DNA of 32,000 bases from an uncultured Candidatus Saccharibacteria bacterium (lineage in GTDB: Bacteria; Patescibacteriota; UBA1384; XYA2-FULL-43-10; 1-14-0-10-43-13), in NCBI GenBank assembly GCA_964543385.1, contig CAZIYE010000001.1, positions 639,274 through 671,273 of the forward strand, given 5' to 3'. The notes under the pieces were generated by a model. It ran no database searches and was not told the origin of the DNA. It saw only the letters and a list, made by a program, of their open reading frames with translations. Of this stretch, positions 18,104 through 21,090 are shown one piece after another. The translations under genes were made by a program, and so were the position numbers. Numbering within the stretch: position 1 is the stretch's first letter; each line of letters begins with the position of its first letter.

Positions 18104-18109
18104 AAAGCG

Positions 18110-18154
18110 AAAAGGACGCGAGAGCCTATGAGGGCAGGTTGCGTCCTTTTGAAG
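18110..18154. terminator. Bidirectional terminator hairpin at the left edge of the GC-rich island
   Basis: aaaaggacgc ... gcgtcctttt with a 21-nt partly paired loop. T-runs on both strands. Confidence 0.7.
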
Positions 18155-18173
18155 AGGGGGTATCGTACGAGGA

Positions 18174-18518
18174 TTATTGCACGATACAGAAGGGGAGTTT
18201 GCCGATGTGAATCAGCCCATCGACCTCGGGGAGACCGGTGACTTTGTGATTACACCACCAGACATTCGAGATGGAGCTGGCGCTGGAAATCGTGATAGCA
18301 CCGACTTTTTCCACGATCTCCATCAGGTCGATTTCGGTCTCCATCGTGAAGATGGGCAGTTCGGTCAGCTTCGGGTTATTCGTGCAGCTGCCGCCGTGTG
18401 GGCAGTACACGATCTGGAGTGGCGTGGTCTCTTCGGCAAAGGTAGCCGATAAACCGGCGAGGGCTTCGCGAAGGGCATCCGCTGTGGGTTTGCCGCTGAG
18501 CAGGTATCTTTTCAGCAT
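18174..18518 (-). CDS. Hypothetical protein (114 aa), GC-rich codon usage
   Basis: AGGAG lies 6 nt before the ATG. The sequence is markedly GC-rich relative to its neighbours. No family recognised (contains CPHGGSC). Confidence 0.6.
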   Translation of the reverse strand: MLKRYLLSGKPTADALREALAGLSATFAEETTPLQIVYCPHGGSCTNNPKLTELPIFTMETEIDLMEIVEKVGAITISSASSISNVWWCNHKVTGLPEVDGLIHIGKLPFCIVQ

Positions 18519-18625
18519 AGTTTTCTCCTATTTCGGCAGTTGCCAAGATTGGCTTAACTGTTTATAACACAATATTATTAAATTGGCTACCATAATCCTT
18601 AATGAATAGTCGCCAGGAAGTGAAA

Positions 18626-18958
18626 TCACCGCCTGGCGAATGGAACAACATCGAGATCGATTACTTTCCATTGGGCAATCCAGTCATCCTCATCCTCTGC
18701 TGGGATTTGGGCCAATGCGAGCCATTCGCCAAATGGCTTATTGTTTTCGATCCGTCGGAGTAGGCGGTCGAAGTGGACACCCTTGATCTGCCTGACTGAG
18801 ACATAAAGCTCGATATATCCAAAGCCGATATAATAGTTCCAGATTGTTACATTAAATCGGCGCGTGTTACCTTTGGTGGTTTGGACTGTGATTTTGAGCT
18901 TTCTCTCAATGGGCGATTTTGGCAAACCAAGAGCATTAAGAATTTCTACTTCTCTCAT
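18626..18958 (-). CDS. Hypothetical protein (110 aa)
   Basis: AAGGGGG lies 6 nt before the ATG. Elevated G+C. No family recognised. Confidence 0.6.
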   Translation of the reverse strand: MREVEILNALGLPKSPIERKLKITVQTTKGNTRRFNVTIWNYYIGFGYIELYVSVRQIKGVHFDRLLRRIENNKPFGEWLALAQIPAEDEDDWIAQWKVIDLDVVPFARR

Positions 18959-19082
18959 GGTAGGCCCCCTTTAGATAGATAGTACATTTAAATATCTTCA
19001 ATTCATTATGCTTTATCCTAATTTTGCAATGAGATGGGAGATATGAAATAATTTTAGTGGCATTAAGTTAACAAGGATTCAT

Positions 19083-19529
19083 ATGACAGACAGGAAAATG
19101 GGCATCGGTTTAGGAGTGATGATTTTAAGCGATAGCAAAGTGTTGCTTGGCCAACGTCATATCGATCCCAGTAAGGCGGATTCAGAATTGCATGGCGAAG
19201 GAACCTGGACAATGCCAGGAGGCAAATTGGAATTCGGCGAAAGCTTTGAAGATGCCTGTATTCGTGAAACCAGTGAAGAAACAGGACTCATAATTAGAAA
19301 AGAAGACCTTAAACTGATTAGTCTGACCAATGATATTGTTCCGACAGCCCATTTTGTAACAGTAGGCTTCCTCTGCGAAATTTTTGAGGGCACGCCAAAA
19401 GTGATGGAGCCAGATGAGATTACTGATTGGAACTGGTTTGACCTAAACAACTTGCCTGCAAAAGTTTTCCCACCAAGCCAAAAAGTATTAGATAATTATA
19501 TCGCTGGCAAGATCTATAGGACTGAATAA
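19083..19529 (+). CDS. NUDIX hydrolase (MutT-like, 148 aa)
   Basis: Canonical Nudix box GGKLEFGESFEDACIRETSEETGL. AAGGA upstream of the ATG. Confidence 0.85.
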   Translation: MTDRKMGIGLGVMILSDSKVLLGQRHIDPSKADSELHGEGTWTMPGGKLEFGESFEDACIRETSEETGLIIRKEDLKLISLTNDIVPTAHFVTVGFLCEIFEGTPKVMEPDEITDWNWFDLNNLPAKVFPPSQKVLDNYIAGKIYRTE

Positions 19530-19534
19530 AAATA

Positions 19535-19572
19535 AAAGACCGGATCACACTGCAAGAGTGTGTCCGGTCATA
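19535..19572 (-). terminator. Terminator hairpin (T-run on the minus strand) between convergent genes
   Basis: gaccgga(t)cacac / gtgtgtccggtc stem. The minus-strand reading is followed by ttttatttttatt. Confidence 0.65.
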
Positions 19573-19635
19573 AGTAGTCCATTGGGCATTCGCCCAGATG
19601 AGAGTCGGTAACTGATTGACATGAGTCAATCTTGA

Positions 19636-19869
19636 TTAGACGTTTGCGGCCTCGTCGCTGTAGAGCTCCTCGAGACGGCGGACACGCTGCGCTTCGCGTT
19701 CGATTTGATCGAGACGGATGAACTCAAGCCAAGCACGGTCTTCGGCTTCGGTCATTGGTTCGTCGAATTCGTATTTATCGTCTTTCGCCGGAAAGTCGAT
19801 AAATACGTCGAAGTCAGAGAACCCAGGGGTGTCACTGTCATTTCCGAATCCATAACCATCGTATTGCAT
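19636..19869 (-). CDS. Small, strongly acidic hypothetical protein (77 aa)
   Basis: AAGGAG lies 6 nt before the ATG. 22 Asp/Glu versus 8 Lys/Arg by hand count. C/G-ending codons (gac, ttc, ctc, gcc). Confidence 0.6.
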   Translation of the reverse strand: MQYDGYGFGNDSDTPGFSDFDVFIDFPAKDDKYEFDEPMTEAEDRAWLEFIRLDQIEREAQRVRRLEELYSDEAANV

Positions 19870-19988
19870 GAGGGTCTCCTTACGGGATTTGGTATGATAA
19901 AATTACACTAAAGTGTAGAAAATAGCAATAAATTAGGGGCATTATGGAAAATAATATAGATAAGGCAAAAGATTATTTCTTTTAAACG

Positions 19989-20501
19989 ATGGAAGAAGCC
20001 AAGGATGATCCGTGGCATTTGGTTGGTCATGTTCCCGAAGCAGTTAAGTGGACAGAGAAAATTATTTCCAAATATCCCGCAGCCGATAGGGAAGTTGCTT
20101 TAATTTCTGTTTGGCTTCACGATTCAGCTCATTATGAAGGCGATTGGGAAGTTGATCATGCAGTCAAAAGCGAAAATAAGGCAAGAAAATTTCTTCAAGA
20201 ATTAGGTCCAACTAAAGATAAAATAGATAAGATATGTCACTGCATCCGAGCACATCGCTGCAGGGATGTTTTGCCGCAAACCATTGAGGCAAAAATAGTG
20301 GCTTGTGCTGATTCGGCTAGCCATATGACAGATATTCTCTATATAGATATGATAAAGAACGACAAGACACAATACGCACTCGAGAAATTAGAACGTGATT
20401 ACCGTGATCTTTCCGCTTTTCCTGACGTAAAAAATAACCTCGCTCCTGTTTATGAAGCCTGGAAAAGATTAATAATAAGTCTGGCTGATATCAATATCTA
20501 A
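19989..20501 (+). CDS. HD-domain phosphohydrolase (170 aa as annotated); a 13-codon in-frame upstream segment (19944-19982) ends in TAA
   Basis: H...HD motif (VWLHDSAHY), plus IRAHR and CADSASH. The only SD (AGGGG) precedes ATG 19944; MENNIDKAKDYFF-TAA-ACG-ATG is in the same frame. Confidence 0.75.
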   Translation: MEEAKDDPWHLVGHVPEAVKWTEKIISKYPAADREVALISVWLHDSAHYEGDWEVDHAVKSENKARKFLQELGPTKDKIDKICHCIRAHRCRDVLPQTIEAKIVACADSASHMTDILYIDMIKNDKTQYALEKLERDYRDLSAFPDVKNNLAPVYEAWKRLIISLADINI

Positions 20502-20558
20502 GAATTTTTGTTGGGGGGATGCCAACCCAACGGATTACCGGAGGGTTGGCGTGCGTGC

Positions 20559-20897
20559 TTAGCGCCATGTGAGAATGCTGCTTGATAACTCGCGGTATGA
20601 TTGTGCAGTGGTGTTTGTCGGTCTACCGCAGGTTATCACGATCTTTCCTTTGAAGGACTTAAAGATCGCAGTAATCGCTGCCGTGGCGGCAGGGTTGTCG
20701 CCAATCTCGCAGAGATGGGCGTTGAGGATGATGCGGTCGATCTGCTCATGATTCTCCTCGAGCAGATATAGCGCATCGATTGGGGAGGTGGCAGGCATCA
20801 ATTCCATGTTATTGCCTTGAATGCTCCGGTCGTCTCTGATTTCTGATTCATATTCCAGAACCAGAATGGCTTTGTTAGCTTTATTCTTTTCATTCAT
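20559..20897 (-). CDS. Hypothetical protein (112 aa), degenerate receiver (REC)-like
   Basis: AILVLEYESEIRD...ALYLLEENHEQIDRIILNAHL resembles a CheY-like fold, but the acidic pocket and phospho-acceptor Asp are not conserved. Elevated G+C. Confidence 0.5.
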   Translation of the reverse strand: MNEKNKANKAILVLEYESEIRDDRSIQGNNMELMPATSPIDALYLLEENHEQIDRIILNAHLCEIGDNPAATAAITAIFKSFKGKIVITCGRPTNTTAQSYRELSSSILTWR

Positions 20898-21090
20898 CAG
20901 ATGGGGGTTCCTTTCAAATGTGATTCTGCTAACTAGTCGTAGTTTATAAAATCAGATCGATTCAGAGTAGGTAGAAAAACACAAAAATATAGCCAATTTA
21001 GTAATTTTTTGTAATTTTTCATAAAATAAATATTTTATCGTAATCTCAGTCATTTTTGATCGGTTCTTACTTTTAGGATAGTATTATTAC

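Follow-up and report, generated by a model that had tools for sequence, protein, structure and literature searches.

Streamlined bacteria of the SAR11/HIMB59 type reportedly carry hypervariable regions, that is, flexible genomic islets placed between conserved core genes, and the phage “morons” of Juhala/Hendrix 2000 are said to be autonomous promoter–ORF–terminator units with a composition unlike that of their neighbours. Here we describe a chromosomal locus that resembles both in part. The window, which is the whole stretch of 32,000 nt that was analysed (C1:639274-671273), belongs to a genome of 902,808 bp in four contigs with 38% GC, and the locus is the block at 18.1–20.9 kb of the window. 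Six open reading frames (ORFs) were found there at the coordinates reported in a first-pass annotation: four small genes on the minus strand (u114, u110, u77 and u112), and the genes of a NUDIX hydrolase and an HD-domain hydrolase on the plus strand. Our analysis suggests, with a probability of about 0.6, that two of the genes in the block are resident hydrolases, and that the other four are single-gene units which are unrelated to one another and differ in age. The block would thus be a variable slot in a conserved chromosomal neighbourhood of an ultra-small, Patescibacteria-type genome, and not one acquired element.

The slot and its occupants

The loci of relatives were compared by a 14-kb DNA query together with tblastn. 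The backbone order in relatives is a GK-fusion gene, nrdD, nrdG, the slot, RRM, a csoR-like gene, an 82-aa ORF and ferredoxin; within the slot, the presence of arsP, NUDIX, HD, ydjM and ZIP varies across relatives. The order is nrdG-…-NUDIX-ZIP in G016, nrdG-…-NUDIX-RRM in G012, nrdG-…-HD-RRM in G021, ydjM-HD-…-RRM in G003 and nrdG-…-HD-ydjM-RRM in G008. In a DNA search of 40 relatives, the block was matched only in its NUDIX and HD parts, with 66–73% identity. The occurrence of NUDIX and HD in the same nrdDG–…–RRM neighbourhood of relatives argues that they are resident genes, and we regard them as vertically inherited nucleotide house-cleaning enzymes.

The NUDIX gene (19083–19529, plus strand) encodes a MutT-like hydrolase that scores 77.1 bits against PF00293 (cut-off, 21.1). 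Its Nudix box (GX5EX7REUXEEXGU) is complete and was read as G-KLEFG-E-SFEDACI-RE-T-S-EE-T-G-L. Its syntenic homologues in relatives are 62–72% identical, and the ratio of nonsynonymous to synonymous substitution rates (dN/dS) is 0.03 against the copy on contig L023. The MutT 8-oxo-dGTPase equivalog models (TIGR00586/NF008044) gave 43–45 bits against cut-offs of 98–148, and all NCBIfam equivalog scores for NUDIX and HD were far below the cut-offs. By these equivalog scores, the protein appears to be a generic NUDIX hydrolase.

The HD-domain phosphohydrolase gene (19989–20501, plus strand) scores 34.2 bits against PF01966 (cut-off, 22); the WLHDSAH motif and later His/Asp residues were read by eye, and the syntenic homologues are 46–56% identical. 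Its N-terminus is interrupted. The first-pass annotation had reported a good Shine–Dalgarno (SD) sequence in front of all six genes, which does not hold for the HD start: the ATG at 19989 has none, and the only SD precedes the ATG at 19944 of a 13-codon stub (19944–19985, plus strand). This stub is an N-terminal remnant of HD that closes with an in-frame TAA at 19983–19985, and the restart lies two codons past this TAA. The HD N-terminus of relatives is continuous at this position, where it forms a helix (…EKAK..F…KDDPW…), and the first ~15 residues are lost to the TAA here. The TAA is not the error of a single assembly, since two further assemblies show the very same DNA. It may mark an early pseudogene or a translational restart.

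The ages of the small genes were approached through their homologues. Three homologues of u110 (18626–18958, minus strand; 110 aa) were found among 5.8e9 protein clusters, with 84, 79 and 57% identity, all on unbinned metagenome contigs. The u110 orthologues all lie directly downstream of nrdG or arsP and are convergent with that gene, and the neighbour on the other side varies: NUDIX in L023, the u112 orthologue in L019, and HD in L020 and L021. L019 has the order nrdG-arsP-u110-u112-ydjM-ZIP-RRM, without NUDIX, u77, HD or u114, and the order in both L020 and L021 is nrdG-u110-HD. In L023, u110 is divergent from NUDIX, and another ORF occupies the position of u114. For u112 (20559–20897, minus strand; 112 aa), the single homologue is P0003 in L019, with 50% identity by BLASTP and 47% in global alignment.

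Against L019, u110 shows a synonymous divergence (dS) of 0.87 with a dN/dS of 0.13, and u112 a dS of 1.16 with a dN/dS of 0.32; against L023, the dN/dS of u110 is 0.08. The flanking genes arsP, nrdG, ydjM and ZIP have dS values of 0.77–2.05 against L019, and RRM has 0.17. By these substitution rates, u110 and u112 are genuine genes that purifying selection maintains and whose divergence has kept pace with that of the backbone. Furthermore, u110 is older than a genus-level split, since NrdG of L020 is only 68% identical to that of this genome. Searches of the order's 43 other species representatives and of 400 other sampled genomes of the phylum recovered neither u110 nor u112; only weak matches in single genomes appeared (E ~6e-3 for u110; E 9e-4 to 8e-3 for u112). 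The small genes are lineage-restricted, and their description as accessory in the first-pass annotation stands. Since u110 and u112 are old, syntenic and under purifying selection in close lineages, the four genes did not arrive together. They arrived at separate times: u110 is the oldest, u112 is common to the nearest lineage, and u77 and u114 were seen in this strain alone.

The layout of the block is consistent with four independent units in the orientation opposite to the hydrolases; every one of them has an SD, with an AT-rich spacer on its 5′ side and a GC-rich hairpin on its 3′ side. The spacers on the promoter side have a GC content of 0.28–0.35, AT-rich as first described; they include the divergent u110/NUDIX spacer (18959–19082; 31% GC) and the divergent u112/ydjM spacer (20898–21090; 28% GC). 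The spacers on the 3′ side have a GC content of 0.45–0.58 and hold the GC-rich hairpins. The spacers of the small genes measure 106–124 nt, and u110 and u114 are separated by 107 nt, with an SD of their own for each, so that each small gene is predicted to be monocistronic. The hairpin between the stop codons of arsP and u114 (18110–18150) has perfect 10-bp arms that sit between an A-run and a T-run, and is probably a bidirectional terminator. Inverted-repeat and fold analysis placed another across the stop codon of u110 (18610–18639, minus strand). A strong hairpin separates the convergent NUDIX and u77 genes (19538–19569), with a U-run after it on the u77 strand, and a GC-rich one separates the convergent HD and u112 genes (20521–20550).

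In an assembly from the same genus (G001), the sequence is broken at each edge of the slot, at L014 (G001:C75) and L015 (G001:C63). One of the contigs stops inside arsP, and in the other, ydjM is preceded by 0.9 kb of unrelated sequence. These breaks suggest strain heterogeneity at the locus.

GC-rich genes in the slot and across the genome

The four minus-strand ORFs are GC-richer than the genome, as the first-pass annotation had proposed from hand counts. The GC content and the GC content at third codon positions (GC3) are 0.55 and 0.71 for u114, 0.46 and 0.50 for u110, 0.52 and 0.58 for u77, and 0.48 and 0.58 for u112, which places them at GC3 percentiles of 99.9, 94.2, 98.0 and 98.3, respectively. 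The genome-wide median GC3 is 0.33 and the 95th percentile is 0.51 (883 rough non-overlapping gene calls over 0.90 Mb); u110 is therefore only a mild outlier. The hydrolases are intermediate, as had been noted, or native in composition (GC and GC3, 0.42 and 0.41 for NUDIX; 0.40 and 0.32 for HD). In the flanks, GC and GC3 are 0.37 and 0.34 for arsP and 0.37 and 0.28 for ydjM, and GC3 ranges over 0.28–0.38 across nrdD, nrdG, arsP, ydjM and ZIP.

This composition is not special to the block. About 92 GC-rich patches (≥300 nt, GC ≥48%) are scattered over the genome, and 54 of the 883 genes (about 6%) reach a GC3 of 0.48 or more; together they occupy 30 kb or 3.3% of the genome. The GC3-rich genes have a median length of 156 aa versus 259 aa for the rest, and 28% of them, versus 8% of the others, run antiparallel to the genes on either side, a 4.4-fold excess (Fisher p = 4e-5). 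Of ten large GC-rich ORFs, eight lack a Pfam domain, and the other two are pyrF and an ORF with a weak, sub-threshold amidase-like match. The GC-rich pyrF (orotidine 5′-monophosphate decarboxylase; GC3 0.69) lies at G000:C1:369957-370784 (L027 857-1684, minus strand), G000 being this genome, and its only pattern-confirmed relatives in GTDB species genomes are 40%-identical metagenome-assembled genomes of Lachnospiraceae.

In relatives, the slot is home to different GC-rich ORFs that are unrelated to these; almost all run antiparallel to the backbone, and only plsX in G008 has a Pfam domain. This plsX (PF02504, E 7e-81; L018, G008:C11, 4154-5197), likewise antiparallel within the slot, has 56% GC and a GC3 of 0.65, and is thus an essential-type lipid gene that bears a “foreign” composition. 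On L020, the most distant contig with u110, two GC-rich ORFs without Pfam domains (636-1588; 185 and 75 aa; GC3 0.64–0.66) stand beside a tandem HD pair; they are antiparallel to the backbone, and their mRNAs have folding z-scores of −2.1 and −2.4.

The mRNAs of u110 and u112 fold more stably than expected. The folding z-scores of the coding sequences are −4.7 for u112, −4.0 for u110, −2.4 for u114 and −1.0 for u77, against −0.16 ± 1.0 (minimum, −1.98) in 30 control coding segments; the orthologues score −2.2 to −3.65 and their flanking genes about 0. Much of the excess folding is accounted for by a near-perfect palindrome within the u77 coding sequence (19770–19807; 38 nt, with 17-nt arms that are 94% complementary and a 4-nt loop) and by two long hairpins inside u112 (20730–20777 and 20583–20638). 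RNAalifold on the four u110 sequences returned a 12-bp long-range helix with two compensatory pairs; a conserved structure of the u110 mRNA was not concluded, as four sequences are too few.

Polarised third-position changes of u110 run GC-ward in this genome (9:4 versus 43:57 in the backbone; p = 0.085) and AT-ward in L019 (4:11 versus 69:25; p = 7e-4), which hints that the composition of u110 is uncoupled from its surroundings. With the GC3 of u110 drifting against that of its flanks in each of two lineages, composition would be a property that belongs to the cassette. The GC-richness of the block may therefore be a local case of a genome-wide class of short, often antiparallel and mostly domain-less GC3-rich genes, whose composition would evolve apart from that of the backbone and whose mRNAs would be unusually structured. 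The small genes might be kept GC-rich by selection for structured mRNA, by GC-biased repair in slots prone to recombination, or by repeated exchange of alleles among related lineages that differ in GC. Only tentatively, and with the odds set clearly against it, do we extend this to Patescibacteria at large, whose short accessory genes would stay GC-rich and strongly self-folding although their chromosomes are AT-rich, the force responsible being directed at the gene itself and not at its site. A literature search found no published description of GC-rich orphan genes in the Candidate Phyla Radiation (CPR).

The small proteins and competing explanations

The four small proteins had no match in Pfam, NCBIfam, PADLOC or PHROGs, and no relatives in phage, plasmid or viral-contig records (PHROGs, IMG/VR, INPHARED and PLSDB); a phage or plasmid origin was rejected on these searches. 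A family of repeats or mobile elements was likewise rejected because neither paralogues nor repeated DNA of the block were found in the whole genome. Structured noncoding RNA was considered for the GC-rich segments and set aside: Rfam scans at the gathering and E-value thresholds were empty, ARAGORN returned only three distant tRNAs, and u110 and u112 are not noncoding RNA, since they are clearly coding by dN/dS.

The first-pass annotation had called the protein at the right edge degenerate and receiver-like, and the model of u112 agrees. AlphaFold2 gave a four-stranded alpha/beta core (predicted local distance difference test, pLDDT, 64; predicted template modelling score, pTM, 0.59) with a tail of pLDDT < 50. 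The top Foldseek matches of the model are receiver domains and the N-terminal pseudo-receiver of KaiA (probability up to 1.0; query-normalised TM-score, TMq, 0.52–0.55; E ~1e-2). No match to Response_reg PF00072 was obtained at E up to 1, and u112 stays below every Pfam threshold. The u112 profile weakly matched four other genomes, and two of the three matches inspected are true Response_reg domains. An hhalign comparison with a real response regulator gave E 8e-5, a probability of 61% and 32% identity over 56 columns; in this alignment, Asn59 falls in the column of the phospho-acceptor Asp and E-Y replaces the acidic pair. The acceptor position is also Asn in the orthologue P0003. Judged from the model and the alignment, u112 appears to be a phosphorylation-dead receiver derivative, and by analogy it would most likely act by binding a partner. 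Receiver-looking ORFs in the slots of L011 and L020 were tried as homologues of u112 and rejected (hhalign probability <1%).

The AlphaFold2 model of u110, built from four sequences, reached a pLDDT of 78.5 and a pTM of 0.72 and consists of one helix followed by six strands. Foldseek found nothing below E 1e-3 in the PDB and BFVD, only weak matches to small beta-barrels, and a sequence-profile search of the PDB gave no match. With a pI of 9.3, u110 is likely a small basic beta-rich protein.

The u77 gene (19636–19869, minus strand; AGGAG SD) encodes 77 residues, of which 22 are acidic and 8 basic; the net charge of about −14 that was first reported was confirmed, and the pI is 4.05. Its N-terminal half is aromatic and acidic, and its C-terminal half is helical as read by eye. 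Among 1.8e9 representatives, a single remote full-length homologue was found (P0009; 81 aa, 35% identity, also acidic); scans of genomes, metagenomes and viral contigs for its gene context did not recover P0009. No u77 homologue was found in 400 other genomes of the phylum; coverage of the family and order came from the representative-protein search and the contig scans alone. No sequence similarity to any solved structure was detected.

The u114 ORF (18174–18518, minus strand) would encode a 114-aa ORFan with four Cys residues, and it is the youngest-looking and least certain of the four genes. It is a real possibility, though one that we would bet against, that u114 is not a minus-strand gene at all: the 345-nt segment would then be non-coding, a relic or coding on the plus strand, and the ORF a by-product of stop-poor GC-rich DNA. 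Gene calls on 100% identical DNA in other assemblies conflict on the strand, with u114 called in two and an 81-aa plus-strand ORF (18207–18452) called in one (L046). Logan contigs of SRR12261224 and SRR12261226 and JGI sample 3300045131 also contain identical DNA. Three frames hold ORFs of at least 91 aa, and no homologue was found in any search made, which covered 5.8e9 protein clusters, the family, 400 genomes of the phylum, viral contigs and plasmids. The codon log-likelihood, trained on the GC-rich long ORFs of this genome, barely tells the frames apart (0.155 per codon for u114 versus 0.119 for the plus-strand ORF). We nevertheless favour the minus-strand gene, because an SD (GGAGA) precedes its ATG at 5 nt, the extent of the ORF coincides with that of the GC-rich segment, the A-/T-flanked hairpin lies past its stop codon (18174–18176), and GC3 > GC1 > GC2, the pattern typical of coding sequence. 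The segment also lacks any Rfam match. We judge the plus-strand ORF the less likely of the two to be real. In the protein databases, two mutually exclusive products of 18174–18518 are held for L044, L045 and L046. A strain variant without u114 was considered and rejected, as the “replacement” in L046 is a different gene call on identical DNA.

Returning to the slot explanation, several points weigh against it. Four of the six adjacent genes are GC3 outliers where a hand estimate expects ~0.16 such runs genome-wide, and some common cause acting on the slot is possible. The genome-wide gene statistics rest on crude longest-ORF calls, and few polarised substitutions could be counted, with silent sites close to saturation. 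NUDIX matches the PADLOC candidate family PDC-S07 (E 5e-13). Finally, u114 and u77 have no orthologues in the searched relatives, as would be the case for recent imports from an unsampled donor.

The last point belongs to an explanation that we consider unlikely, in which the four ORFs, or at least u114 and u77, are recent imports from GC-richer donors that have not yet ameliorated. GC3 percentiles of 98–99.9 would fit, as would the site of u114, which is empty in L019 and filled by a different ORF in L023, and the assembly breaks of G001 at both slot edges. However, no donor lineage emerged from the best matches, from which the first-pass annotation had hoped to name one: u114 has no match in 5.8e9 clusters and u77 one match at 35% identity in 1.8e9 representatives. 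Of the marks of an island, atypical composition was found; an integrase, a tRNA target and flanking direct repeats were all absent from the block, as was repeated DNA. The small genes carry SDs and AT-rich 5′ spacers of the host type. Moreover, u110 and u112 are GC-rich here despite their age and a divergence that parallels that of the flanking genes. The block was neither acquired as a unit nor absent from relatives, and the idea of a single compositionally foreign block, put forward in the first-pass annotation, fails on the residence of NUDIX and HD and on the age and synteny of u110 and u112.

Very improbable is one functional accessory module for defence, anti-defence or toxin-antidote action, also proposed there, in which the small partners regulate NUDIX and HD and u77 is a DNA mimic: the divergent arrangement, the co-directional u110 and u114, the charge of u77 and the matches of NUDIX to PDC-S07 and to phage NUDIX PHROGs speak for it, but u110 adjoins NUDIX in one other contig only (L023), HD lacks a u77-like partner in every other locus examined, NUDIX and HD occur across the family without these partners, the neighbouring genes are housekeeping genes, and the searches for PADLOC, PHROG, Pfam, viral and plasmid relatives of the small proteins gave no signature of such a module or of a mobile element. 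The first-pass annotation had itself tied its two pairs to their recurrence elsewhere, and as they are not conserved, they fall by its own reasoning. The PDC-S07 match, the sole match in a PADLOC-DB scan of the six block proteins, is a matter of generic domain similarity. As for a type II toxin–antitoxin system, u110 occurs without u114 in L019, L020 and L023, no toxin–antitoxin domains were found by PADLOC or Pfam, and the monocistronic layout with spacers of 106–124 nt is unlike the overlaps typical of such operons.

Reading the block as a variable slot does away with the attractive but mistaken label of an island for defence or anti-defence based on NUDIX and HD, and cautions that compositional outliers in ultra-small genomes are not to be taken as recent transfer from host to symbiont. 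It also adds a conserved small protein family under purifying selection (u110), a putative stand-alone pseudo-receiver (u112), and a documented case of a genome-wide pattern of GC-rich, structured, antiparallel orphan genes. Should one cause underlie this pattern, the pattern would bear on the ways in which bacteria of the CPR acquire and retain new genes.

Comparison with known systems

The hydrolases resemble the MutT/NUDIX and HD house-cleaning phosphohydrolases in that their Pfam domains score above the cut-offs and the Nudix box and HD motif are intact. They differ in that NUDIX scores far under the cut-offs of the MutT equivalogs and the N-terminus of HD is cut by the TAA. In its small size and net charge of −14, u77 is like the DNA-mimic anti-restriction proteins Ocr and ArdA; unlike these, it lies off mobile elements and has neither phage or plasmid relatives nor similarity to solved structures. 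The model of u112 resembles pseudo-receivers such as the N-terminal domain of KaiA (PDB 1M2E and 1R8J) in its putatively CheY-like alpha/beta architecture and the replaced acceptor Asp, a likeness that rests on a Foldseek E of ~1e-2 and a model pLDDT of 64. In contrast to KaiA, u112 stands alone, with ~90 residues and four strands, and has no beta5/alpha5, conserved Lys or output domain.

At the level of the single gene, the small genes are like morons in that each is self-contained, with SD, ORF and hairpin, and differs in composition from its flanks. Unlike morons, they are chromosomal and outside a prophage, no phage relatives were found, and two of the four are old and syntenic. At the level of the locus, the slot is like the flexible islets in its fixed site between conserved genes, its content that varies among close relatives, the breaking of assemblies and the predominance of genes of unknown function. 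Unlike these islets, the slot is only 2.8 kb long with native housekeeping hydrolases interleaved, and its variable genes are GC-richer than the backbone and mostly antiparallel, with unusually structured mRNAs.

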